Notes: generated by a model not told the origin, from the sequence alone. Counted from the first letter of the stretch, positions 1 through 55,895 are shown. The stretch is 64,000 nt of DNA from Desulfobacteraceae bacterium Eth-SRB1 (GCA_004193555.1 RPGP01000001.1:192114-256113), one strand, 5' to 3'. Numbers and translations: made by a program.

Positions 1-651
1 GTCATCAGGATCGGCAACATTGACCGTCTGCATACCTTTGTGGGTCAAAGATGTGTGGAATTCAAAAGCCTGATAGACGGCGGAATCATAACGCAGTTAT
101 CCTTTGTGCCGGCAGCCCGCTCAAAAGAGAATCTAATCCCGGCTGAATGCGATTACAAAGGGAAAAAATACAAAATCAACAGAGAGCCCACACAGAAAGA
201 ATATGATGATATGCTGTTCGGCTGGCTTGTTGAGTCGGGTGTCACATCAAATTCTGTAATTTATGTAAAGGAGCTTGCCACTGTTGGAATCGGAACAGGA
301 GAACAGGACAGGGTGGGCGTCGCAGAAATCGCAAGAGACAAGGCATATCGGAAGCTTTGCGACCGTTATTGCTTTGAAATGCACGGCATCCCTTATAACG
401 GACTTAAAGACAAGGACGCAAAGGAAGAAATCAACAAGAGGGTGACTGATGAAAAAGGCGGGCTTGCCGGCGCTGCCATGGTAAGCGATGCATTTTTCCC
501 GTTCAGGGACGGCGTGGATGTTGGAATCCGGGAAGGAATTACTTCAGTTATCCAGCCCGGAGGATCTGTCAATGATTATCAGTCTATCGAGGCATGCAAT
601 GAGGCGGGCGTCGCAATGGTATATACGGGGCAGAGAAGCTTTAAGCACTAA
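1..651 (+). CDS. purH: AICAR formyltransferase domain protein (PurH-type), C-terminal part, open at window start
   Basis: Frame 1 has no stop from base 1 to the listed ORF at 40. The C-terminal motifs VSDAFFPFRDG, QPGGSVND and MVYTGQRSFKH are typical of the PurH AICARFT domain end. Confidence 0.7.
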   Translation, partial: VIRIGNIDRLHTFVGQRCVEFKSLIDGGIITQLSFVPAARSKENLIPAECDYKGKKYKINREPTQKEYDDMLFGWLVESGVTSNSVIYVKELATVGIGTGEQDRVGVAEIARDKAYRKLCDRYCFEMHGIPYNGLKDKDAKEEINKRVTDEKGGLAGAAMVSDAFFPFRDGVDVGIREGITSVIQPGGSVNDYQSIEACNEAGVAMVYTGQRSFKH

Positions 652-658
652 GAGATTA

Positions 659-798
659 ATGCCTAAAGTGAGCTAAAGTGTCTAAAGTGAGCTAAAGTTA
701 AGGTATGCGCCTTTGGCGCTGCCAATTTTATATAAAAGATGGAGCAAGGCGACTCATTAACTTTAGGCACTTTAGCTCACTTTAGGCACTCATAACTT
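659..798. repeat. CTAAAGT-type palindromic intergenic element (A-type), copy 1
   Basis: The left arm is gcctaaagtgagctaaagtgtctaaagtgagctaaagttaagg. The core contains the gcgcctttggcgc mini-hairpin and ggagcaaggcgac. The right arm is ttaactttaggcactttagctcactttaggcac. The element is near-identical to 8884-9047. Confidence 0.85.
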
Positions 799-813
799 AT
801 AGGAAAGTAAATC

Positions 814-3741: not shown

Positions 3742-3784
3742 TTTCCACTCGCAAAGTAAACCTTTGTCTTTTAGTCTTGCATGG

Positions 3785-3966
3785 AAAAGATGAACGTCCA
3801 ACATCGAACAATGAACGTCCAACATCGAATAATGAAACAAAACACCCAATGAGAAACAAATGTTCAGGGATATTTGGTTGCTGTTTTTCTGACCTCCGAC
3901 CTCTGTTTCTTTGTTTTTCCCATTCGATGTTCAATGTTGGACGTTCGATGTTCGATGTTCATTGTT
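3785..3966. repeat. GAACATC-heptamer palindromic intergenic element (B-type), copy 1
   Basis: The left arm is aaaagatgaacgtccaacatcgaacaatgaacgtccaacatcgaataatg. The right arm is cattcgatgttcaatgttggacgttcgatgttcgatgttcatt. The loop includes a short CCGACCT-type run. Confidence 0.85.
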
Positions 3967-3980
3967 TCAGTTTAGCGTTT

Positions 3981-5411: not shown

Positions 5412-5470
5412 TGGATTGATGATTGATGGAATCGCTTCGCTCTATCTTTTCAATCGACAATCATCAATCC
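5412..5470. repeat. GATTGATGA-type small hairpin with GCTTCGCT core
   Basis: The sequence is ggattgatgattgatgg-aatcgcttcgctc-...-tcgacaatcatcaatcc. The right arm overlaps the hypB stop codon. Confidence 0.7.
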
Positions 5471-8883: not shown

Positions 8884-9047
8884 CCACGGAGCTAAAGTAA
8901 CAAAGAAAGTTATAAGTGAGCTAAAGTGCCTAAAGTGAGCTAAAGTTAAGGTATGCGCCTTTGGCGCTGCCAATTCTATATAAAAAATGGAGCAAAGCGA
9001 CTCATTAACTTTAGGCACTTTAGCTCACTTTAGGCACTCGTAACTTT
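8884..9047. repeat. CTAAAGT-type palindromic element (A-type), copy 2
   Basis: The element is near-identical to 659-798 and is the reverse complement of 13461-13640. Confidence 0.85.
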
Positions 9048-11130: not shown

Positions 11131-11262
11131 TGCCTAAAGCGCCTAAAATATGTTAAAGTGCCTAAAGTTAAGGTATCGCTTCGCTCTGTTTTTTATATAA
11201 AATTAGCAAAATTCCATAACTTTAGGCACTTTAGCTCACTTTAGGCACTTGTAACTTTGCTT
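11131..11262. repeat. CTAAAGT-type palindromic element (A-type), copy 3
   Basis: The arms are gtgcctaaagcgcctaaaatatgttaaagtgcctaaagttaagg and taactttaggcactttagctcactttaggcac. The core is tcgcttcgctc. Confidence 0.8.
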
Positions 11263-11469: not shown

Positions 11470-11485
11470 CTTGAGTGCTCTTTTA

Positions 11486-11883
11486 AGTTACAAATGACTA
11501 AAGTGACTACTGTAAGTGCCTAAAGTGAGCTAAAGTATATTAAAGTGCCTAAAGTTGTGGTACGCCTTCGGCGTGTTAATTTTAAAGTTATAAGCGCCTA
11601 AGGTAATGTAGTGAACTACTGGCTATCTTTACTTCGATTTCTACAAAACTTTGACAGTCTCGTAAAAAGTCGAAAAATACCGTTTTTCGTCATTCCGGTA
11701 AAAACCGGAATCCAGTCTTTTCAAGTAGTTACAGAACATCTGGACTCCGGTTTTCACCGGAGTGACGACTTTTTACGAGTTCATCAACTTTAGCTCACTT
11801 GCAGTTTTCAAATAAGCAGCGCCGAAGGCGCATTCCTTAACTTTAGGCACTTTAATATACTTTAGGCACTTTAGCTCACTAAA
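11486..11883. repeat. composite A-type element: 4HB-gene deletion derivative with a nested TIR element
   Basis: The left arm and 5' region match 24696-24770. Bases 11607-11655 match the last ~50 nt of the 4HB gene at 25085-25134. The right arm matches 25176-25222. Confidence 0.8.
11659..11779. repeat. nested small element with 14-bp terminal inverted repeats CTCGTAAAAAGTCG / CGACTTTTTACGAG
   Basis: The 14-bp TIRs are perfect. Internal hairpins are attccggtaaaaaccggaat and ctccggttttcaccggag. Related ends occur at 22755-22880, 55026-55158 and 55925-55950. Confidence 0.7.
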
Positions 11884-13460: not shown

Positions 13461-13640
13461 GTTACGAGTGCCTAAAGTGAGCTAAAGTGCCTAAAGTTAA
13501 TGAGTCGCTTTGCTCCATCTTTTATATAGAATTGGCAGCGCCAAAGGCGCATACCTTAACTTTAGCTCACTTTAGGCACTTTAGCTCACTTGTAACTTTT
13601 TTTGTTACTTTAGCTTACTTTAAATCTCTGTGTTCTCCGT
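13461..13640. repeat. CTAAAGT-type palindromic element (A-type), copy in inverse orientation
   Basis: The element is the reverse complement of the 8884-9047 element, including the outer ccacgg...gttac flank. Confidence 0.85.
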
Positions 13641-14656: not shown

Positions 14657-14795
14657 AAAGATGAACGTCCAACATCGAACATTGAACGTCGAACATCGAA
14701 TAATGATGTCGCTCCGCTCCGCCAGTTTATAAATTAGCAGAATACCTTATTCAACATTCGATGTTGGACGTTCGATGTTCGACGTTCATCTTTTT
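14657..14795. repeat. GAACATC-heptamer palindromic element (B-type), copy 2
   Basis: Arms built of gaacgtc/caacatc/gaacatt units flank the core aataatgatgtcgctccgctccgccagtttataaatt. The right end supplies the mutase stop codon. Confidence 0.85.
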
Positions 14796-16938: not shown

Positions 16939-17080
16939 TAAAAAGATGAACGTCCAACATTGAACATCGAACATCGAACGTCGAATAATGATGTCGCTCC
17001 GCTCCGCCAGTTTATAAATTGGCAAAATACCTTATTCAACATTCGATGTTGGACGTTCGATGTTCGATGTTCATTTTTTT
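16939..17080. repeat. GAACATC-heptamer palindromic element (B-type), copy 3
   Basis: The element is about 90 percent identical by eye to 14657-14795, including the core. Confidence 0.85.
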
Positions 17081-17548: not shown

Positions 17549-17689
17549 AACTAAAGTGCCTAAAGTGAGCTAAAGTGCCTAAAATGCCTAAAGTTAAGGA
17601 GTCGCTCCGCTCCGGTTGTTTCCAAATTGAGGAGCGAAGCGACAACAACATTCATCATTCGATGTTGGACGTTCGATGTTCATCTTTTT
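17549..17689. repeat. chimeric element: CTAAAGT arm + GCTYCGCT core hairpin + GAACATC arm
   Basis: The left arm is A-type and the right arm is B-type. The central 13-bp stem is gtcgctccgctcc/ggagcgaagcgac. The element is the reverse complement of 23045-23178. Confidence 0.85.
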
Positions 17690-17719
17690 CAATCCCCTAA
17701 TCCTCTAATCCTCTAATCC

Positions 17720-17761
17720 AACACCTAACACTTAACACCTAACACTTAACACCTAACACTT
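17720..17761. repeat. 6 x heptamer array AACACCT/AACACTT
   Basis: Two heptamers alternate perfectly. The array is preceded by TAATCCTC octamers and abuts the aminotransferase stop codon. Confidence 0.85.
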
Positions 17762-19247: not shown

Positions 19248-19333
19248 ACCACTGAGATCACAGAGAACACAGAGAATTTTCTTTTTGTTTTTTTATATAT
19301 TATCCCTCTGTGGTCTCTGTGGGCTCTGTGGTT
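19248..19333. repeat. CACAGAG 9-mer hairpin
   Basis: accactgagatcacagagaacacagagaa pairs with ccctctgtggtctctgtgggctctgtggt. The hairpin ends on the tgt stop codon. Confidence 0.8.
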
Positions 19334-20453
19334 AATCCTTCTTTTTAGCGGCTAAACTGTTATAAAATTTCTCTCTGAACACCTCAAACTTATCATCAAT
19401 TATTGCCTTTCGCATATTCTTCATCAAGCCGACATAATAGTTTATATTATGAATTGTATTTAAACGATAGGCAAGCAGTTCTTTTGACATATAAAGGTGG
19501 CGCAGATAAGCCTTGGAATAATTTCTGCACGTATAACATGTACACCCCTGCTCCACAGGCTCTTTATCATACTTGAACCGTGAATTAGATATGTTTATCG
19601 TGCCGCAGCTTGTAAACAACTGCCCGTTCCTGGCATTTCTGGTGGGCATAACACAATCAAACATGTCTGCGCCAAGGGCAACAAGCTCGACAATATCCTC
19701 AGGAGTTCCCACGCCCATGATGTATTTGGGCTTATTATCAGGCAGCTCAGGCAGCGTAAAATCCGCAATATCAAGCATTATATCTTTTGGTTCGCCCACG
19801 CTCAACCCGCCGATTGCATAGCCGCTGAAACCGATGTCAACGAGAGCTTCAACAGACATCTCCCTTAGATCCTTGAACATCCCACCCTGAACAATACCGA
19901 AAAGAGCGGATTTTGAACCATTATCCCATGCTGTTTTACATTTTTCAGCCCAGCTTGTGGTAAGTTTAAGGGCGTACATTGCTTCATCTCTGCTTGACGG
20001 ATATGCAATGCAATTATCGAGGCACATCATTATATCAGAACCGAGACAGTTTTGTATTTCAACCGCCTTTTCAGGTGTCAGCAAATGGCTCGATCCATCG
20101 ATATGAGATTGAAATGAAACCCCCTCGGGAGATATTTTCGCAAGCTTTGCAAGGGAAAATATCTGAAATCCGCCGCTATCCGTCAGAATTGGCCTGTTCC
20201 AGTTCATAAATCTGTGCAAGCCGGAAAAGAGGCTTATCACATCGCAACCCGGCCTTAAGTACAAATGGTATGTATTCCCCAAAATTATACTGGCTCCGGC
20301 GCCCGCAAGCTCTTCCGGAGACACCGATTTCACGCTTGCAAGAGTGCCCACAGGCATAAACACAGGTGTTTCAATCACACCGTGAGAAGTCTGCAACAGC
20401 CCCGCCCGGGCTCTTGTCTTTTTAGATTTTGCTGTTATCTTAAAATTGAACAT
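19332..20453 (-). CDS. tgt: tRNA-guanine transglycosylase
   Basis: The ORF has TPVFMPVGT and DSGGFQ motifs and the zinc site CxCxxC...H. The start is set at MFNFKI. Confidence 0.9.
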   Translation of the reverse strand: MFNFKITAKSKKTRARAGLLQTSHGVIETPVFMPVGTLASVKSVSPEELAGAGASIILGNTYHLYLRPGCDVISLFSGLHRFMNWNRPILTDSGGFQIFSLAKLAKISPEGVSFQSHIDGSSHLLTPEKAVEIQNCLGSDIMMCLDNCIAYPSSRDEAMYALKLTTSWAEKCKTAWDNGSKSALFGIVQGGMFKDLREMSVEALVDIGFSGYAIGGLSVGEPKDIMLDIADFTLPELPDNKPKYIMGVGTPEDIVELVALGADMFDCVMPTRNARNGQLFTSCGTINISNSRFKYDKEPVEQGCTCYTCRNYSKAYLRHLYMSKELLAYRLNTIHNINYYVGLMKNMRKAIIDDKFEVFREKFYNSLAAKKKD

Positions 20454-20557: not shown

Positions 20558-20685
20558 TAAAAGATGAACGTCCAACATCGAACATCGAATAATGAAATCG
20601 CTTCGCTCCGCCGGTTTATAAATTGGCAGAATACCTTATTCAAAATTCGACGTTGGACGTTCGATGTTCGATGTTTATTTTTTTC
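20558..20685. repeat. GAACATC-heptamer palindromic element (B-type), copy 4
   Basis: The core is aataatgaaatcgcttcgctccgccggtttataaatt. The element is followed by the shared module cagcgctactgctggg...gctacgatcc, also present at 22441-22490. Confidence 0.85.
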
Positions 20686-21845: not shown

Positions 21846-22437
21846 AAAAGATGAACGTCCAACATCGAACATTGAACATCCAACATCGAATAATGCTATC
21901 GCTTCGCTCCTCAATTTATTTCTGTTTCTTTTCAGCCGTTCTGATACTCGTAACGAAAATCTTAATTAATTCCTCTGTTTCCTGTAAAATATCATCTAAT
22001 AGTTCAGGTTTTTTAATTAAAGGCACACGCTGAATAAGTTTTAACCATCGCTGGCTCTCCCTGAGTTCCTTTAATGAGATACGAAGCTTATGGATAAAGT
22101 CCTTTGGGGACTCCGCTGCCTGAGCTTCACCATGGTTTGGATAAGGTGAAGTTCCCGATCTTAACAATTGGCCAGCAACATGGTTGCCTGTTCTGGTATT
22201 TGGCATCTGTTCAACGATCTTTATTATTCGCACCGAATACTCGAGCAGCCTTTCTTCCAGATCATATGTTTGTTTCTTCATCTTTTCCCATTCAACGTTC
22301 GATGCTCATCCATTTGGATTGTTGATTGATGATTTTCTCGTTCCCACGCTCTTGCGTGTGAATTCATATTTGAAGGAGCGAAGCGACATCATCATTCAAA
22401 ATTCGATGTTGGACGTTCGATGTTCGATGTTCATTTT
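21846..22437. mobile_element. B-type hairpin element carrying a four-helix-bundle gene in its loop
   Basis: The left arm is 21846-21894 plus core tcgcttcgctcctc. The right arm is 22371-22437 (gaaggagcgaagcgac plus cgatgttggacgttcgatgttcgatgttcat). ORF 21916-22281 lies between them. Confidence 0.7.
21916..22281 (-). CDS. four helix bundle protein (23S rRNA intervening sequence protein family)
   Basis: The 121-aa ORF has motifs LLRSGTS, KDFIHKLRISLKELRE and W characteristic of the TIGR02436/PF05635 family. Confidence 0.85.
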   Translation of the reverse strand: MKKQTYDLEERLLEYSVRIIKIVEQMPNTRTGNHVAGQLLRSGTSPYPNHGEAQAAESPKDFIHKLRISLKELRESQRWLKLIQRVPLIKKPELLDDILQETEELIKIFVTSIRTAEKKQK

Positions 22438-22496
22438 TTTCAGCGCTACTGCTGGGGACAGAGCCCCCGTGCTACGATCCTTAATTCCCTAATCCC

Positions 22497-22682: not shown

Positions 22683-22960
22683 TTAATTCCTCTTTTTTAT
22701 CACGAAAACACGAAAGTACGAAAACACGAAGAAAAGCATAAAAAAGTATGATGAACCCGTAAAAAGTCATTCCAGAACCGCATCAAGCCCCACCCCTTCC
22801 CTTTCCTCTTCGTGGCCTTCGTGTTCTTCGTGGTACAACACACTCTGTGGTAAAAAATCGACTTTATACGAAACCGTCAAAATTTTATTTTATAAACTTA
22901 TGCACCCTGTTTTGTCAAAACAAAATGGCTTGACTATGCGCCGCATTAAGATATAAATTG

Positions 22961-23040
22961 TTCAGGAGTTCAGGAGTTCAGGAGTTCAGGAGTTCAGGAG
23001 TTCAGGAGTTCAGGGGTTCAGGGGTTCAGGGGTTCAGGGG
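22961..23040. repeat. 10-unit octamer tandem array (6 x TTCAGGAG then 4 x TTCAGGGG)
   Basis: A direct count gives 80 nt with period 8. Confidence 0.9.
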
Positions 23041-23044
23041 ACTG

Positions 23045-23178
23045 AAAAAGATGAACATCGAACGTCCAACATCGAATGATGAATGTTGTTGTCGCTTCGC
23101 TCCTCAATTTGGAAACAAACTGAGCGAAGCGACTCATTAACTTTAGGCACTTTAGCTCACTTTAGGCACTTTTTAACT
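23045..23178. repeat. chimeric element: GAACATC arm + GCTTCGCT core hairpin + CTAAAGT arm
   Basis: The first ~78 nt are identical to the reverse complement of 17549-17689. The core stem is gtcgcttcgctc/gagcgaagcgac. Confidence 0.85.
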
Positions 23179-23264: not shown

Positions 23265-24695
23265 ATGGAATTTGAATCTGTTATAGGGCTTGAAATACAT
23301 GCCCAGCTAAAGACAAAAACAAAAATCTTCTGCGGCTGTTCAACAAAATTCGGAGCCCCTCCCAATACCCATACCTGTCCGGTATGTCTTGGCATGCCCG
23401 GGGTGCTCCCTGTGCTCAACAAAAAGGTTGTTGAATACAGTTTGCGCATGGCGCTTGCCACAAATTGCAAAATCAACAGGCAAAGCAGATTTGCCAGGAA
23501 AAACTACTTTTATCCTGACCTTCCAAAAGGGTACCAGATCTCCCAGTATGAACTGCCGATTGCGGAAAACGGGCATGTCGATATTGAAATCAACAGCCAT
23601 AAAAAAAGGATCGGAATCACAAGAATTCACATGGAAGAGGATGCAGGCAAACTGACTCACAATCCTGACAGGCCGCTTAGTATGGTCGATTTCAACAGGA
23701 CAGGGGTTCCTCTTATTGAGATAGTCAGCGAGCCGGATCTAAGATCCCCTGAAGAAGCCGGGGCATACTTAAGGCAGCTCAGGTCGATTGTTCGTTATCT
23801 CAGTATATGCGACGGCAACATGGAGGAGGGAAGCTTCAGGTGCGATGCAAACGTATCGATCAGGCCGATTGGCTCTGAAACTTTCGGCACGCGCGCAGAG
23901 CTTAAAAATTTAAATTCCTTTAAACATGTTGAAAAGGCGCTGCAATACGAAATAACAAGGCAAAAAGAAATTTTATCTGACGGCGGTGAGGTAATCCAGG
24001 AAACAAGGCTATGGAGCCCTGATAAAAACAGGACGACTTCAATGCGATCAAAGGAGGAGGCGCACGATTACAGGTATTTTCCAGACCCTGATCTTTTGCC
24101 TCTTGTAATTGACGATACATGGATTAATAATGTAAAAAAAAGCCTGCCCGAACTGCCGGATGAAAGAAAAATCCGTTTTATAAACAAATTTTTCCTTTCT
24201 TCAAACGACGCCGAAGCATTGACATCCAGCCGGGAGCTTGCAGAATATTTTGAGGAATGTGTAAAACAATTTCCGAATCCAAAACAGGTTTGCAACTGGG
24301 TCATGGGGGAGCTGCTCGGACTATTGAATGCAGAAGAAAAAACCATAAATGAATCCCCGGTTTCAACCGGCGATCTTGCCGGGCTGCTCAAATTAATCGA
24401 CAAAGGGGTCATAAGCGGCAAAATCGCAAAAACGGTATTTGAAGAAATGGCAAAAACAGGCCGTGCCCCTGAAAAGATTGTAAAGGAAAAACAGCTTGTA
24501 CAGGTCACGGACGTATCTGCCATTGAAGAGGTGGTATCAAAGATACTTTCAAACAACCCCAAAGAGGTGGAGGCTTACAAAAACGGCAAAACCAAACTTA
24601 TGGGTTTCTTCGTCGGCCAGGTTATGAAAGAAACAAGGGGCAAGGCCAATCCGAAGATCGTGAATGAAGTCCTGAAAAAGAGGCTGATAAATTAA
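23265..24695 (+). CDS. gatB: Asp-tRNA(Asn)/Glu-tRNA(Gln) amidotransferase subunit B
   Basis: The N-terminus is [15 protein letters not shown] and the [10 protein letters not shown] motif is present. The ORF is full length at 476 aa. Confidence 0.95.
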
Positions 24696-25222
24696 GTGCC
24701 TAAAATGCCTAAAGTATGTTAAAGTGCCTAAAGTTGTGGTACGCCTTCGGCGTGCTAATTTTAAAATTATAGGATGAAAGGTGGATAACAAAAAATTTGC
24801 TGCAGCGCTTGAAAAACGAACTCGTGAATTTGCGGTGCGGATTATTCACTTATCTTCGAAATTGCCGAATACACATGAAGGCAGAGTAATACGGAATCAG
24901 ATTACTAAATCCGGTACATCTATAGGCGCTAATTATCGTGAGGCAAATCATTCCAGAAGCAAAGCAGATTTTAAAAATAAAATCAAGATTTCTGAAAGTG
25001 AAGCAAGCGAAACTCAATATTGGATTGAAGTTGTTGTAGAGGCAAAAATGTTGCCATGGAAACAGGTAAAAGCAGAACACAAAGAATGTGGCGAACTATT
25101 GGCCATCTTTACTTCGATTTCTGCAAAACTTTAACTCATTTACAACTTATAACTTTAAAATAGACAGAATACATTAACTTTAGGCATTTTAGGCACTTTA
25201 ATATACTTTAGGCACTTTAGTT
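24696..25222. mobile_element. A-type hairpin element carrying a four-helix-bundle gene in its loop
   Basis: The element starts on the base after the gatB stop. The left arm is 24696-24745 and the right arm is 25176-25222; they are complementary over ~30 bp in best register. ORF 24781-25134 lies inside. Confidence 0.7.
24781..25134 (+). CDS. four helix bundle protein (23S rRNA intervening sequence protein family)
   Basis: The 117-aa ORF has a GTG start and motifs QITKSGTSIGANYREA, DFKNKIKISESEASET and YW. Confidence 0.85.
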   Translation: MDNKKFAAALEKRTREFAVRIIHLSSKLPNTHEGRVIRNQITKSGTSIGANYREANHSRSKADFKNKIKISESEASETQYWIEVVVEAKMLPWKQVKAEHKECGELLAIFTSISAKL

Positions 25223-25237
25223 TAGAAGGAGGAATTT

Positions 25238-27259: not shown

Positions 27260-27390
27260 GTTGGGTTGAGGAACGAAACCCAACAATAATGATTGCGCAG
27301 AAGTGTATATTAATTGTGTAAAAGTAAAGTGGTTCATCGAAAGAAGATATGATGTTGGGTTGCTTCGCTTAACCCAACCTACGAACTACG
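27256..27390. repeat. small palindromic element with GTAGGTTGGGTT / AACCCAACCTAC termini
   Basis: The terminal inverted repeat is 12 bp. Each end is itself a mini-hairpin (gttgggtt-N9-aacccaac), and the right one carries the gcttcgct core. Confidence 0.7.
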
Positions 27391-36410: not shown

Positions 36411-36547
36411 TAAAAGATGAACGTCGAACATCGAACGTTCAACATCGAATTTTGAATAAGGAATTCTACCAATTTATAAACTGGCGGAGCGAAGCGATTT
36501 CATCATTCGATGTTCAATGTTCGACGTTCGATATTCGATGTTCAAAA
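36411..36547. repeat. GAACATC-heptamer palindromic element (B-type) with core in inverse orientation
   Basis: The core aatttataaactggcggagcgaagcgatttc is the reverse complement of the B2/B3 core. Confidence 0.8.
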
Positions 36548-40601: not shown

Positions 40602-42313
40602 TATTCAGTTGTTTTTACACACGCCAGCAGCTCACGCGCATGATCCAGTGTTGTCTTTGTAATTTTTATACCACCTAACATTCTGGCTAATTCTTTTATA
40701 CGTTCTTCTTTGTTTAGCGGGTTTATATCGGTTTTAGTTCTGCCGCGTGAAACAGTTTTCGATATTCTGAAATGATGATCGCCGAATTTTGCAATCTGCG
40801 GCAGATGAGTTATGCATATAATCTGGTGATAACCGGCAAGAGCAGACAGCTTCTTTCCGACAACTTCAGCCACCTTGCCGCCGATCCCTGCGTCAACCTC
40901 GTCAAAAACAAGGGTTTCAACCGATTCTGTTTTAGCGAGAATTGCCTTTAGAGCAAGCACTACCCTTGAAAGTTCACCTCCTGAAACAATGCCGGATAGC
41001 GGTTTTAACGCCTCTCCTACATTCGGAGCTATTATAAATACAGCGCGATCCATTCCTGTTTCATTTATTACATTTCCATCGGTTGTAAGGTGAGGATCTG
41101 CATTACTGTCTGCCGGCATTGTTTGAAGAGATATTTGAAATTTCGCCTTGGGCATTTCAAGTGTAGTTAGCTCCTTTTCCAGTTTTTCTGCAAGGGTTTT
41201 TGCCGTCTGTTTTCTTTTCGCAGAAAGGTGTGTTGACGCCTTGGTTAGCCTGTTATGCAGATTAAATATCATTGCTTCGGTTTCATCTATCTTTACAGAA
41301 ATATTTTCAATGCCTGAAATTTCGTGATCAATTGATTCAAGATAAGTTAGCGCCGCCTCAAGAGATCCCCCGTATTTGCGCTTTAGCTTATTTAGCGTAT
41401 CAAGGCGTTCTTCAACCTCTTCGAGCCTTTTTTCATCAATCTGTATGCTGTCCATGTAAGTTCTAAGTTCTTCGGCAATATCCTCAATATTAAAAGTCGC
41501 TTCAGAGATCCTTCCTGCTTTGGATAAGAGTTCCGTGTCAATCCGGCACGCCTTTTCAAGACTTTTCTTTACCTCAACAAGCCTTTCAATAATTGCGCCC
41601 TGGGCGCTGTAAAGTTCATCAACTGAAGCGCGGACAGACCGGTAAAGCTCTTCTCCGTTTTTAAGACGCAATTTTTCCTGCTCAAGCATTGTATCCTCGT
41701 CAAGGCTGATCGAAGCTTCTACAATCTCTTTTTTCTGAAACTCAAGCAGTTTAATGTGTTCGCCCTGTTTATCTTTTAGGGCGTTAAGCTCTCTTAATTC
41801 CCGGATCAAAGGAACTATTTCGTGATAATACCTGTAAATTTCGTGACGCAAAGGCATTAAACCGCCGAACTGATCAAGCACAATCAGGTGCTGATCTTCC
41901 TTTAAAAGCCCCTGGTGTGCGTGCTGGCCGGATATGCTGGCCATATTTTCAGTTATTGAATTCAGCATCTGTATGGTGGCAAGGTGTCCGTTGATATAAA
42001 TCCTGTGTCTGTCTTTGCGGGAAATAATTCTTCTTATTAACAGCCCTTCTGATGTATTAAAGCCATGGTCCTTCAAAACTTCGGCAATCCTGCTTTTTTT
42101 TGAAATTTGAAATAAAGCTTCAAGCTCGGCAGTATCGGAACCGGTTCGAATAAGCCTGGATGTCGCTCTGCTGCCAAGCAGCAAATTTACCGCATTTATT
42201 ATAATAGACTTGCCGGCGCCTGTTTCACCGCTTAATATCGTCAGCCCCTCTGAAAAACATATATGCAGGTTGTCGATTATTGCAAAATTTTTAATGGAAA
42301 GCTCTCTAAGCAT
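40601..42313 (-). CDS. recN: DNA repair protein RecN
   Basis: The N-terminus is MLRELSIKNFAIID. Walker A GETGAGKS, a coiled-coil middle and the C-terminal signature SGGELSR are present. Confidence 0.95.
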   Translation of the reverse strand: MLRELSIKNFAIIDNLHICFSEGLTILSGETGAGKSIIINAVNLLLGSRATSRLIRTGSDTAELEALFQISKKSRIAEVLKDHGFNTSEGLLIRRIISRKDRHRIYINGHLATIQMLNSITENMASISGQHAHQGLLKEDQHLIVLDQFGGLMPLRHEIYRYYHEIVPLIRELRELNALKDKQGEHIKLLEFQKKEIVEASISLDEDTMLEQEKLRLKNGEELYRSVRASVDELYSAQGAIIERLVEVKKSLEKACRIDTELLSKAGRISEATFNIEDIAEELRTYMDSIQIDEKRLEEVEERLDTLNKLKRKYGGSLEAALTYLESIDHEISGIENISVKIDETEAMIFNLHNRLTKASTHLSAKRKQTAKTLAEKLEKELTTLEMPKAKFQISLQTMPADSNADPHLTTDGNVINETGMDRAVFIIAPNVGEALKPLSGIVSGGELSRVVLALKAILAKTESVETLVFDEVDAGIGGKVAEVVGKKLSALAGYHQIICITHLPQIAKFGDHHFRISKTVSRGRTKTDINPLNKEERIKELARMLGGIKITKTTLDHARELLACVKTTE

Positions 42314-52130: not shown

Positions 52131-53474
52131 TTATTTAAGTTTTTTTGATATATTCAGAACCTTATCAACAACAACATCAGGATGCTTTCCAAGGATTCTT
52201 ATCATCGGCTCCTTTCCCACATCACCCCGGTCAAAGATAATATCCGGGATTGTATCCCTGTTTGAAAGGATGGAATCTGTTCCCCATTCGAGCGAAGAGC
52301 CCTCTTTTGCCTTTATCTCTTTTGGTTCATCCGACCGGTCAAAGCTATCAATCTCATATCCCGATTCACTGCATATATTGAGAATATCTTTGGAAAACCT
52401 GATATTCATTGCGCAGCGAAAGTCGGGGTTATACTTCATTGTTGTCAGGATTATGTCGGCAATATGTCGTGATGCGCCAAAAGCAGGGTCTTTGAAAGTG
52501 CAGACATTTTCCTCGACTTTGATAATTCTTCCGGGAATAGCGGCCACATCATCTTCCGTCAACGCATATGGCAGAGCATAACCGAAGTTTGATTGCACCT
52601 CAGGGATTATATTTCCACATTTTTCAGCCTTTATTTTTTCAACAGCTTTTTTAAGATCTGTAATGCATGCATAGCGCTGGCTGTCTCGTAAAATTGGGGC
52701 AAAATGGTTTGTCGGGCCATGTCCTTTGCCAAGGCAAAGGGAAAACCGTAAGGCATCAGTGATATATTCCTTGGCCATTCTTACCGATTCAAGAACTGAT
52801 TTCTCCTTTGCAAGGAATGTGGCAATTGCCGCTGAATATGTACAACCTGTACCATGAGTATTTTTAGTGTCTATCCTTTCTGAAACAAACTCATGAAACT
52901 TTTTACCGTCATAGAGAATATCGACTGCATCTCCCCTGAGGTGGCCGCCCTTGACAACGACGTTTTTTGCTCCCAGACTGTGTATAATCTTCGCCGATTT
53001 TTTCATGTCATCAACAGAAGATATTTTGATTTTTGACAGAACTTCGGCTTCAGGAATGTTGGGAGTAACAACAAAGGCTAACGGCAAAAGTTCTTCCATC
53101 AGGGATTCTTTGGCCTCATCTTCTATCAGAAGAGCTCCTCCCTTGGCTACCATAACCGGATCTACAACAAGGATATCTATTTTGTATTCTCTTATCTTTT
53201 CAGCTATTACTTTAATTATTCGTGAGTTGGCAAGCATTCCGGTCTTGGCTGCATCGATTCCTATATCGGTTGCTACGGAATCAAACTGTTTCTCTACAAA
53301 ATTTTCCGGGATATCATAAATTCCCTGGACACCAAGGGTGTTTTGAGCGGTTAAGGCGGTTATCACACTCATTCCAAATCCGCCCAAAACGGTAATTGTC
53401 TTTAAATCCGCCTGAATTCCGGCTCCACCTCCGGAATCGGAACCGGCTATGGTCAAGACTCTTGCTATATTCAT
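52131..53474 (-). CDS. thiDN: bifunctional HMP/HMP-P kinase ThiD fused to ThiN-type thiamine-phosphate synthase (ThiDN)
   Basis: The N-terminal ThiD carries AGSDSGGGAGIQADL. The C-terminal ~170-aa ThiN-like domain carries IPEVQSNFGYA. Confidence 0.8.
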   Translation of the reverse strand: MNIARVLTIAGSDSGGGAGIQADLKTITVLGGFGMSVITALTAQNTLGVQGIYDIPENFVEKQFDSVATDIGIDAAKTGMLANSRIIKVIAEKIREYKIDILVVDPVMVAKGGALLIEDEAKESLMEELLPLAFVVTPNIPEAEVLSKIKISSVDDMKKSAKIIHSLGAKNVVVKGGHLRGDAVDILYDGKKFHEFVSERIDTKNTHGTGCTYSAAIATFLAKEKSVLESVRMAKEYITDALRFSLCLGKGHGPTNHFAPILRDSQRYACITDLKKAVEKIKAEKCGNIIPEVQSNFGYALPYALTEDDVAAIPGRIIKVEENVCTFKDPAFGASRHIADIILTTMKYNPDFRCAMNIRFSKDILNICSESGYEIDSFDRSDEPKEIKAKEGSSLEWGTDSILSNRDTIPDIIFDRGDVGKEPMIRILGKHPDVVVDKVLNISKKLK

Positions 53475-53670: not shown

Positions 53671-53697
53671 TTTTGAAAATAAATTGCTTGATTATTC

Positions 53698-53778
53698 AAC
53701 TGCCGCTCCCTACGCTGGTATAATCCAGGTCAGGTTCAAAGGGTATTTTCTCAGCCCTGTCAGGCACCCCCGCATATT
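53698..53778 (-). ncRNA. TPP (THI-box) riboswitch
   Basis: The minus-strand sequence is gggggtgcctgacagggctgagaaaataccctttgaacctgacctggattataccagcgtagggagcgg. It contains the conserved GGGGUGC, CUGAGA, ACCCUUUGAACCUGA and UACCAGCGUAGGGA elements. Confidence 0.9.
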
Positions 53779-53849
53779 TTTAATAATCTATCCGGCTTTA
53801 TCTATATAATCAAGCAATAATTTTACAACAGCTCTTTCTGTTTTCCGGG

Positions 53850-55010: not shown

Positions 55011-55025
55011 CAGATCACCTCAATA

Positions 55026-55158
55026 TTGATGGCTTCGTAAAAAGTGGTTTTTCGACTTTTTACGAACAGTGTTAAGTGTTAAGATCTTGATATGACAGTT
55101 AAATGTTTAATCTTAACACCTGACACCTGATGAATTCGACTTTTTACGAATTCATCAA
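55026..55158. repeat. composite of three consecutive module hairpins filling the alr-truA gap
   Basis: The first hairpin is cttcgtaaaaagt/actttttacgaa. The second is gtgttaagtgttaag/cttaacacctgacac. The third is tgatgaattcg/cgaattcatca, which overlaps the truA stop. Confidence 0.75.
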
Positions 55159-55895
55159 TATTTTACATGCATCAGAAACAGCCCCTGTGGAGGGGCGGTT
55201 ATGCCCGCAAGGCTGCGATCCTTTAGATTAAGTATGTTTCTAACATCATCCGGCGTTATTTTACAATGCCCCACATCAACAAGTGTGCCTACAATATTGC
55301 GGACCATATATCTTAAAAATCCGTTAGCCTCGATTTCAAAAATCAGATATCCTTGATCCTTTTGTATGAAATCAGCATTAATAACGCATCTTGTCGCATG
55401 GGATCTGGGACTGCCCGTACCTTCAAATGTCGTAAAATCATGCGTGCCGACAATATAATTTATAGCCGCGTTCATTGCATCAAGATTGAGCGCTTTACGA
55501 ATGAACCACGCATACTGCCTGCCAATGGCGGCAGGTGTTGGTGTATTTAAAATTCTGTAATTATATGTTTTGCTTCTTGCATTATACCTTGCATGAAAAC
55601 TGTCGTCAGCATGGATGCACTCTTTTATCACAATATCATCCGGCAAGAGGCTGTTAAGCCCTTTCCGGAAATCGTCCGGGATAATCCTGGTATCAGAGTG
55701 AAAGTTTGCCACCTGCCCCAGGGCATGCACACCTGCATCTGTTCTTCCTGAAGCTGTAAGAATAACCTTTTCCCCTGTCATTGTCGATAATGCTTTTTCT
55801 ATTGTCTCCTGAATTGTCGGCTCATTTGCCTGCCTTTGCCACCCATGATATAAGGTGCCGTCATATTCTATTGTGAGTTTAAAATTCTTCAGCAT
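55155..55895 (-). CDS. truA: tRNA pseudouridine(38-40) synthase TruA
   Basis: The ORF has YDGT.YHGWQRQ and GRTDAGVHA motifs. Confidence 0.9.
   Translation of the reverse strand: MLKNFKLTIEYDGTLYHGWQRQANEPTIQETIEKALSTMTGEKVILTASGRTDAGVHALGQVANFHSDTRIIPDDFRKGLNSLLPDDIVIKECIHADDSFHARYNARSKTYNYRILNTPTPAAIGRQYAWFIRKALNLDAMNAAINYIVGTHDFTTFEGTGSPRSHATRCVINADFIQKDQGYLIFEIEANGFLRYMVRNIVGTLVDVGHCKITPDDVRNILNLKDRSLAGITAPPQGLFLMHVKY

Follow-up and report, generated by a model that had tools for sequence, protein, structure and literature searches.

The element at 14657..14793 (minus strand) sits between the methylmalonyl-CoA mutase and MeaB genes in the window, i.e. the whole 64-kb stretch of DNA analysed here, which comes from a relative of 'Ca. 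Desulfaltia' within the Desulfobacterales (MeaB 81–85% identical). It is a B-type short element made of a left arm, a P module, a 13-nt box (GGAGCGGAGCGAC, 14708-14720) and a right arm, and belongs to a set of palindromic elements, recognised by inverted-repeat search and direct reading, which occupy intercistronic gaps of a methylmalonyl-CoA/succinyl-CoA housekeeping operon and its neighbours. The arms consist of 3–5 tandem units of 7–10 nt in inverted orientation, and arms are 40–49 nt long; A arms are made of CTAAAGTG(C/AG) units, B arms of the heptamers GAACATC, GAACGTC and CAACATC, and one small hairpin has GATTGAT arms. When the box is read GGAGCG.., the order in short elements is left arm, P module, box, 3–14 nt and right arm. 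The AT-rich P module (GGTATTCTGCYAATTTATAAA) is, beyond the box, common to the elements and is also present in the phage described below; its B-type form is TTGAATAAGGTATTCTGCYAATTTATAAACYGGC and its A-type form is the B version with an inserted GCGCC-TTT-GGCGC hairpin. For the hairpin of the short element, folding gives −64 kcal/mol (z = −9).

A-type short elements are found at 649..799 (plus strand; CTAAAGTG arms, P with the GCGCC hairpin and a degenerate box GGAGCAAGGCGAC at 741-753), 8914..9038 (plus strand; box GGAGCAAAGCGAC at 8989-9001, antisense to the flanking genes, with an ortholog in the genome L161), 11137..11250 (minus strand; box AGAGCGAAGCGAT at 11175-11187, with orthologs in L161 and L163) and 13467..13591 (minus strand, which is the sense strand of its box GGAGCAAAGCGAC at 13504-13516). 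Besides the 14657..14793 copy, B-type short elements lie at 16940..17080 (minus strand; box 16993-17005), 20559..20683 (minus strand; box 20597-20609) and 36418..36544 (plus strand; box GGAGCGAAGCGAT at 36486-36498, antisense to the flanking genes), together with a box-less one at 3784..3968 (minus strand), an internal-deletion derivative left with the first codons of a four-helix-bundle (4HB) gene and with the 3' module, itself without a box, of the 4HB cassette. The GATTGAT-arm hairpin at 5413..5470 (minus strand) has its box (AGAGCGAAGCGAT, 5431-5443) with the minus strand as sense. The full-length B-type element at 21850..22440 (minus strand) has B arms, each with a box at its inner edge (21898-21910 and 22375-22387), and encloses a 121-aa 4HB gene (21916..22281, minus strand), and the full-length A-type element at 24695..25225 (plus strand) has A arms, inverted P modules and a 117-aa 4HB gene (24781-25134), without a box. 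A decayed long A-type element at 11480..11880, with no strand assigned, retains a remnant of the C-terminus of the 117-aa 4HB protein (11607-11651, plus strand), and an unrelated palindrome (11687-11768) is nested in it. Finally, two A/B chimeras with an A arm on one side and a B arm on the other were found at 17555..17690 (minus strand), where box and anti-box (17601-17613 and 17631-17643) form a 13-bp hairpin, and at 23050..23170 (plus strand; boxes 23091-23103 and 23121-23133), the inverse of the former.

The terminal inverted repeats, small size and multiple copies by which MITEs are defined are all present in these elements. A cognate autonomous element encoding a transposase was not found in the window, where the full-length elements encode only the 4HB protein, for which we know of no catalytic activity. 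Transposase, integrase, recombinase and reverse transcriptase (RT) genes are absent from the 64 kb, as is any IS200-like gene, and the element sequences hold no GTAG-hairpin unit. No convincing target-site duplications were seen, and none for B-type elements; TTAA borders the core of A-type elements, this tetranucleotide being palindromic and itself part of the inverted repeat. Rfam searches of the window gave a single match at the gathering threshold, to a TPP riboswitch, with no rRNA and no family matching the elements or the box, and an E-value scan of 13.4–25.3 kb gave only meaningless hairpin matches of miRNA type. Exact-sequence look-ups of the window proteins and of P0020 matched no record.

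The box stands out clearly from the composition of the window. The 13-mer GTCGCTYCGCTCC or its complement is present in 6 exact copies, compared with 0.00 expected from dinucleotide shuffles, and in 16 copies with at most 2 mismatches on both strands, compared with 1.5 expected. With exactly 3 mismatches another 16 copies are found, which is chance level (about 15 expected for at most 3). Intergenic palindromes hold 15 of the 16 copies with at most 2 mismatches, all within the first 37 kb of this housekeeping chromosome (starts at 741, 5431, 8989, 11175, 13504, 14708, 16993, 17601, 17631, 20597, 21898, 22375, 23091, 23121 and 36486), and the sixteenth, at 42162 within a RecN-like ORF, agrees with the chance expectation. 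In the preliminary description the box had been placed at the inner edge of the arms; fifteen copies do lie there, within a few bases of the positions first given, and the copy listed at 27362 was removed. This copy (27359–27371, in a 'AACCCAAC element') was rejected as a member because its 3 mismatches are at chance level and its architecture of two small hairpins is different.

From 45 curated copies, the box consensus is RGAGCGNAGCGAY (R1 G2 A3 G4 C5 G6 N7 A8 G9 C10 G11 A12 Y13), with positions 2–6 and 8–12 conserved in at least 40 of the 45 and unconserved flanks, making the box a discrete conservation island. It is asymmetric, with no dyad symmetry. Read as GGAGCG.., it comes after an AT-rich tract or P module, or after a 4HB stop codon, and the right (3') arm begins 3–14 nt further on, past a spacer which is usually (A)TCATTA; position and polarity relative to the arm are constant, also in other genomes. 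As had been proposed, the box is common to otherwise unrelated families, being found with A (CTAAAGTG), B (GAACATC) and GATTGAT arms in the window and with GGATACT (genome L005) and GGTTTCAG (genome L016) arms elsewhere, for a total of at least five arm types. Eight of ten independent short copies face the downstream gene and two (8989 and 36486) are antisense to their flanking genes. The next start codon is 25–115 nt away from the window boxes, and none of the 24 GAGCGA[ACT] sites in the window is placed as a ribosome-binding site.

Boxes in both orientations had been described as pairing into a stem of 12-13 bp, with one change preserved as G-U. Such box/anti-box pairs do exist (17601/17631, 23091/23121 and 21898/22375), and for 17601/17631 the mismatch is G·U on the minus-strand transcript only, giving 13 contiguous pairs and −26.8 kcal/mol, as compared with C·A and −22.3 kcal/mol on the plus strand. 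The box is single and unpaired in 9 of the 15 copies in the window and in all copies found in other genomes. Box-to-box pairing is the exception. A secondary structure between P and box (UUCUGCUA with UGGCGGAG) was also considered and rejected, being weak (z = −0.1) and not kept in A-type elements, and the likeness between the box flank and helix 45 of 23S rRNA was judged too weak.

The two 4HB ORFs of the window both match PF05635, the Avd-like S23p or '23S rRNA-intervening sequence protein' family (E 1e-13 and 8e-21), with 34% identity between the 121-aa and 117-aa proteins; the nearest solved structure is 2RLD, of five chains as deposited. Homologues of the 121-aa protein at 85–94% identity number in the thousands and come for the most part from very short contigs. 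Since most of these contigs are of about 1 kb, the heptamer arrays break metagenome assemblies; such arrays may also pass for CRISPR arrays. Among complete assemblies, CP070652.1 and NZ_CAXXXH010000001.1 carry B-type elements. In 80 species-representative genomes, homologues of 64–97% identity are flanked by B-type heptamer arms, with a spread over Desulfobacterota, Nitrospirota, Chlamydiota, Lentisphaerota, Verrucomicrobiota (including an Akkermansia MAG), Planctomycetota and Bacteroidota. The ATG of B-lineage genes is usually abutted by the left arm, and a co-oriented ORF lies directly upstream of the 4HB gene in 64 of 65 scorable loci. Purifying selection acts on the gene (median dN/dS 0.085, 27 copies), and the encoded protein is basic (pI 9.5).

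The 117-aa lineage, on the other hand, has A-type arms on its flanks (80 metagenome loci). At least 3 B units are present on both sides of the gene in 54 of 75 B-lineage loci and A units in 0 of 75, while A-lineage loci have A units in 63 of 76 and B units in 0 of 76; two more divergent 4HB genes have arm units of their own, CACAAAT and CGAAATC. Across phyla, arm type and 4HB protein lineage go strictly together, and the arms, initially proposed to be interchangeable, are not freely so. Counts of G·U versus A·C mismatches between arms, in the sense transcript, are 120:123 for B, 6:13 for phage and 66:37 for A arms, and selection on arm pairing at the RNA level was rejected, with no G·U bias in B and phage arms and a modest one in A arms. 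In the absence of a consistent G·U bias, pairing of the arms as RNA is therefore unproven. By analogy with rRNA intervening sequences (IVS), an RNA stem of RNase III type is plausible for the arms, though not supported by these counts, and the basic, pentameric 4HB protein may bind the arrays as DNA or RNA.

Of the 40 closest B-lineage loci, at least 13, all from Desulfobacterota, have the box 3' of the stop codon, and it is never upstream of the gene there; it rarely adjoins A-lineage genes, and most gene-bearing elements, including all those outside Desulfobacterota, lack it. Among gene-less elements, it is present in 8 of 8 A-type copies with loops of 49–61 nt and in most B-type copies with loops of 46–70 nt. 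The box is independent of the 4HB lineage and, in this sample, limited to Desulfobacterota. For turnover, the two syntenic operons of L161 and L163 were compared with the window: orthologous intergenic gaps hold different arm families or no element, and the mutase and MeaB genes, separated by the B element in the window, overlap in L163. Two A-type copies are orthologous across genomes with arms almost unchanged, and in these the box has 3 substitutions in 13 positions, compared with 6 in 125 for the rest of the element. The box is therefore without detectable constraint in resident copies, and since resident chromosomal copies decay, many of them may be relics.

Scanning IMG/VR with a B-arm 24-mer led to the contig IMGVR_UViG_3300033145_001804, a Mu-like transposable phage according to PHROGs matches to a Mu-type transposase, a transposition protein and portal, head and tail genes. 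Nearly all intergenic gaps of this phage contain tandem-heptamer arrays followed by a leader and then a start codon, in the order left array, loop, right array, box and ATG, the arrays often forming an imperfect inverted pair; a P-like GGTATCCTCAATTTAAAAAA is found in the loops of these hairpins, within late structural operons. The leader reads (A)GAGCGAC-CGAAG-GGAGCGAC-A-ATG. All nine full 13-nt boxes of the phage are on the coding strand, 0–23 nt before a start codon, 3 of them overlapping the ATG; GGAGCGA is confined to the coding strand (16 sites, with 0 on the opposite one), and at least 14 sites are 1–5 nt ahead of the ATG of an ORF of at least 50 aa. The half-unit GGAGCGAC is commoner than the full box, and the predominance of this one-unit form favours a description of the box as two tandem 'GAGCG' units. 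Position 13 is mostly A in phage copies, without pairing to position 1. The phage box is 3' of the right arm; in chromosomal elements the box lies in the loop, on the 5' side of that arm. With its GGAG spaced like a Shine-Dalgarno sequence, the phage box or GGAGCGAC appears to serve as a ribosome-binding leader. In the viral stretches fetched by the B-arm scan no 4HB gene was found, and a pattern of box plus TCATTA gave zero matches in IMG/VR.

Taken together, the box is real, modular and strand-specific, and is common to several arm families and to a phage. Its strand specificity and phage context suggest a leader or a protein- or ribosome-binding role at the transcript level, and we tentatively favour, at a little less than even confidence, the reading that the box is a sense-strand leader or expression module travelling with the arms, probably acting in the transcript, and not a recombination site. 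The purine-rich box would then be bound by the 30S subunit or by a protein, marking the start of a downstream expression unit, and the arms would form or bind a 'punctuation' between cistrons, either as an RNase III-type stem or as an array to which the cognate 4HB protein binds. The module may have spread among arm families by recombination between elements, as in the A/B chimeras, and many copies of the window are probably decaying relics of this leader function. Against this leader reading stand the absence of ribosome-binding placement at the window sites and the loss of the box from orthologous resident copies. Likeness to Shine-Dalgarno sequences accounts for GGAG only and not for the invariant G4, C5, G9 and C10 or for the conserved second half, and the AGAG.. 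variants (13/45) would be poor Shine-Dalgarno sequences. The side of the right arm on which the box lies also differs between phage and chromosome, and the 8989 and 36486 copies are antisense. As to the earlier view of the box as the conserved functional part of the elements, the conservation island agrees with it, but the box is dispensable, decays at orthologous sites and shares the core with P; of the roles suggested for it at that time, a processing or protein site comes closer than recombination, given the strand specificity and phage context.

Another explanation, unlikely but with a real chance of being right, is that the box is a neutral relic, the leftover ribosome-binding leader of an ancestral phage or cassette, i.e. 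of whatever came after the 4HB gene, carried passively by gene-less derivatives, homogenised by recent copying or gene conversion and without function in the chromosome. The box substitutions at orthologous copies, at least as fast as in the rest of the element (3/13 vs 6/125), are as expected from such a relic, as are the lack of the box in most full-length elements and the zero window copies in ribosome-binding position; three loci also retain G6→A variants, in which the mini-hairpin considered next would be broken. Against a relic stand the conservation island amid variable flanks in at least five arm families and many genomes, the fixed polarity and distance to the arm, and the near-universal presence of the box in elements with loops of 50–70 nt.

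Somewhat more doubtful is a role of the box as a structure of its own, in which the 13-mer would fold on itself as a mini-hairpin, in single-stranded DNA or less stably in RNA, and act as a structural signal, for example as a cap against nucleases, an obstacle to SSB, or a mark for priming or nicking while the element is copied. In this fold R1-Y13 would be the closing pair, followed by tandem G·A pairs (2·12 and 3·11), a G4-C10/C5-G9 stem and a G6-N7-A8 triloop. Every position of the consensus fits: G4 and G9 are invariant and C10 is found in 44 of 45 copies, C5 changes only to T (3 times), which keeps a G·T pair, N7 is A in 28, G in 13, C in 3 and T in 1, and G6 and A8 occur together in 40 of 45. 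For positions 1 and 13, G-C is seen 23 times, A-T 9 times and G-T 4 times, and changes on both sides were seen in 9 cells as compared with 4.6±1.6 after shuffling, a value reached by 1/500 shuffles; this covariation may on the other hand mark a sub-lineage (AGAG..GAT) and not compensation. Nearest-neighbour folding of the 13-mer (GGAGCGAAGCGAC) gives 0 kcal/mol both as DNA and as RNA, the A at position 13 of most phage copies does not pair with position 1, and the half-unit GGAGCGAC, commoner in the phage, is unable to form the hairpin.

A broader proposal, of about the same low probability as the mini-hairpin, starts from the 4HB genes. The 'IVS proteins', as S23p/Avd-like pentamers, would bind arrays of about 4–5 tandem heptamers sequence-specifically, with one unit per protein lineage, and together with P and box would make up a class of selfish 'operon-punctuation' elements not recognised before, horizontally mobile across transposable phages, chromosomes and phyla, of which the ORF-containing rRNA IVS would be a special case. 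The box would be their common cis signal for coupling to the host, possibly as a loading point for the ribosome or a protein, or as the mini-hairpin.

That the box is a double-stranded DNA site for a recombinase or transposase which moves the elements or swaps their arms, as first suggested, now appears quite improbable. The reciprocal-looking A/B chimeras at 17.6 and 23.1 kb, the presence or absence of elements at orthologous gaps and the modules shared with a transposable Mu-like phage would be consistent with it. In each chimera, however, an A-type and a B-type half, both made up of a box and a right arm, meet head to head, with the A/B junction in the 17-nt loop between the two boxes and outside either of them. 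Since the centres of the two chimeras are mutually reverse-complementary, they are inverted copies of one element, and their interpretation as attL/attR was rejected. The lack of dyad symmetry in the box, of recombinase, transposase, integrase and RT genes in the window and of an identified target-site duplication also stands against a recombination site, and the strict strand polarity in the phage (16:0) would be unexpected for it. Least credible of all, with very little probability, is that P is an internal promoter restarting transcription after the terminator-like arms, with the box as the first transcribed part: B-type short elements do have TTGAAT, 17 nt and TATAAA ending about 6 nt ahead of the box, the arms end in T-runs flagged as terminator-like and 8/10 copies face the downstream gene, but a sigma-70 promoter was rejected, with no call by the promoter scan (the -10 is without T6), no acceptable -35 element in A-type P modules, P inverted at the other end of full-length A elements, where it is therefore an inner inverted repeat, and phage P copies in hairpin loops of late structural operons.

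No prior description of these elements or of the box was found in literature searches, and the nearest precedents are the rRNA IVS, the SAS/ESAS sequences of mycobacteriophages, the Geobacter heptanucleotide repeats and mosaic MITE-like repeats. Mosaic intergenic palindromes are represented by REP/BIME in E. coli, Correia elements in Neisseria and BOX in S. pneumoniae. The elements described here are likewise small, multicopy, intercistronic, hairpin-forming and co-transcribed with their neighbours, and have in common with them exchangeable modules, conserved linkers, nested or chimeric copies and presence or absence at orthologous sites. They differ from them in having arms of tandem short units and full-length members with a 4HB gene, and in lacking a GTAG/RAYT signature, an identified TA duplication and sequence similarity. 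The heptanucleotide repeats of Geobacter metallireducens, found at dozens of intergenic sites, consist of 4–5 tandem heptamers, some as inverted pairs, and were proposed to be IHF/HU protein-binding sites (PMC2700814). The arms here are similar in being tandem heptamers from a related phylum, with different units; a shared box, a P module, a 4HB gene and a phage link are not among the features reported for the Geobacter repeats (PMC2700814).

The central 7 nt of the box match d(GCGNAGC) in sequence in 40/45 copies, with N free and both GAA and GGA loops represented. The d(GCGNAGC) mini-hairpin is described as 'extraordinarily stable' with any N, GAA and GGA loops being documented; its stability depends on non-canonical pairs missing from nearest-neighbour models, and primases and the RNA polymerase of phage N4 make use of such hairpins, in single-stranded DNA origins and N4 promoters (PMC13037366).

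The SAS of Cluster K mycobacteriophages are 13-bp, GGAG-containing repeats found at start codons in one orientation, absent from the host genome and conserved beyond what pairing with 16S rRNA would need; about half of them have imperfect inverted repeats ahead of them, with a consensus that changes from one subcluster to another (Pope et al. 2011, PMC3203893). The box is similarly an asymmetric 13-nt sequence with GGAG, in one orientation and conserved beyond 16S pairing, and it is common to elements whose inverted-repeat consensus is lineage-specific. In the phage contig the likeness extends to a position a few nt from start codons and, in many cases, after imperfect inverted repeats with a variable spacer, and the phage box leader would be a second, independent instance of the SAS/ESAS architecture. 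The sequences are unrelated (SAS GGGATAGGAGCCC vs box RGAGCGNAGCGAY). SAS are phage-restricted whereas the box is abundant in a bacterial chromosome, where, unlike SAS, it lies inside a hairpin loop and not next to a start codon, and SAS have neither the tandem-heptamer arms nor the link to a 4HB gene seen here.

What the 23S-rRNA-IVS/S23p protein family does, and how ORF-containing IVS originated, are questions standing since the early 1990s. In the ORF-containing 23S rRNA IVS of Leptospira, Coxiella and Xanthomonas, an S23p/PF05635 ORF lies in the loop of a long stem, with tandem heptameric repeats adjoining it; the ORF has no promoter of its own and is therefore transcribed with the host gene, and these IVS were proposed to be selfish or mobile (PMC4990558). 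The full-length elements of the window similarly have a PF05635 ORF within terminal inverted repeats forming a long stem, with tandem heptamers adjacent. The dN/dS of 0.085 for the 4HB ORF is in contrast with the decaying IVS ORF of Coxiella (PMC4990558), and gene-less derivatives with P and box, not described for IVS, are present here. The lineage-specific heptamer-arm context in many phyla, the nearly constant read-through from an upstream gene and the strong purifying selection lead to testable hypotheses of binding and processing for IVS proteins. A second handle is offered by the box, as a short strand-specific motif found across arm families and in a Mu-like phage. The elements form a mosaic family which is IVS-like in design but placed between protein-coding genes, as compared with helix 25 or 45 of 23S rRNA for the IVS.

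At three loci elsewhere (L025, L039 and L005), the left arm and the first codons of the four-helix-bundle gene (4HB; PF05635, 23S rRNA IVP family) are partially duplicated in tandem in the flanks of this gene, which suggests that slippage or recombination is frequent at the arms. In the match table of the homologue search, homologues of the 121-aa protein lie mostly on contigs of ~0.5-2 kb and some of their clusters hold hundreds of member sequences, both consistent with a high-copy repeat that breaks assemblies. At window 11607-11651 on the forward strand, within a decayed long A-type element and antisense relative to the operon, 13/15 residues (E = 0.002) match the C-terminus of the 117-aa 4HB type, a remnant of such a gene.

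Pure tandem heptamer arrays adjoin the chimeric elements, which carry one A-type and one B-type arm each, at window 17690-17760 (CTAATCC with TAACACC/TAACACT) and 22965-23040 (GGAGTTC/GGGGTTC), and the matching spacers of related genomes hold comparable arrays (GGGATTA, GTGTTAG). Two further palindromes without the box, at 19265-19345 and 22735-22885, have arms of other units, of the CACAGAG and CACGAAG types, which are also present in orthologous spacers of the syntenic operons L161 and L163. A separate palindromic repeat family, with the motifs TCATTCCGG..CCGGAATGA and CGTAAAAAGTCG, was found at window 11687-11768 and 55022-55162 and also in L163, one copy sitting within a decayed A-type element. 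Further along the window, a TPP riboswitch (53690-53781, reverse strand, 70 bits) precedes a thiD/thiN-type gene (52131-53474), an ordinary arrangement.

The IMG/VR contig IMGVR_UViG_3300033145_001804 (1-31402; stretches L176, L178 and L175) is a Mu-like transposable phage in which nearly all intergenic gaps are taken up by arrays of tandem heptamers together with a recurring leader, AGAGCGACCGAAGGGAGCGACAATG, several genes being preceded by B-type left arms alone. Another stretch, L174, displays an arm-plus-GAGCGAA-ATG layout comparable to that of this phage.

'23S rRNA IVP' is among the genes linked to CRISPR arrays in a large screen (PMC10910872), and the tandem-unit arms around such genes could be mistaken for arrays.
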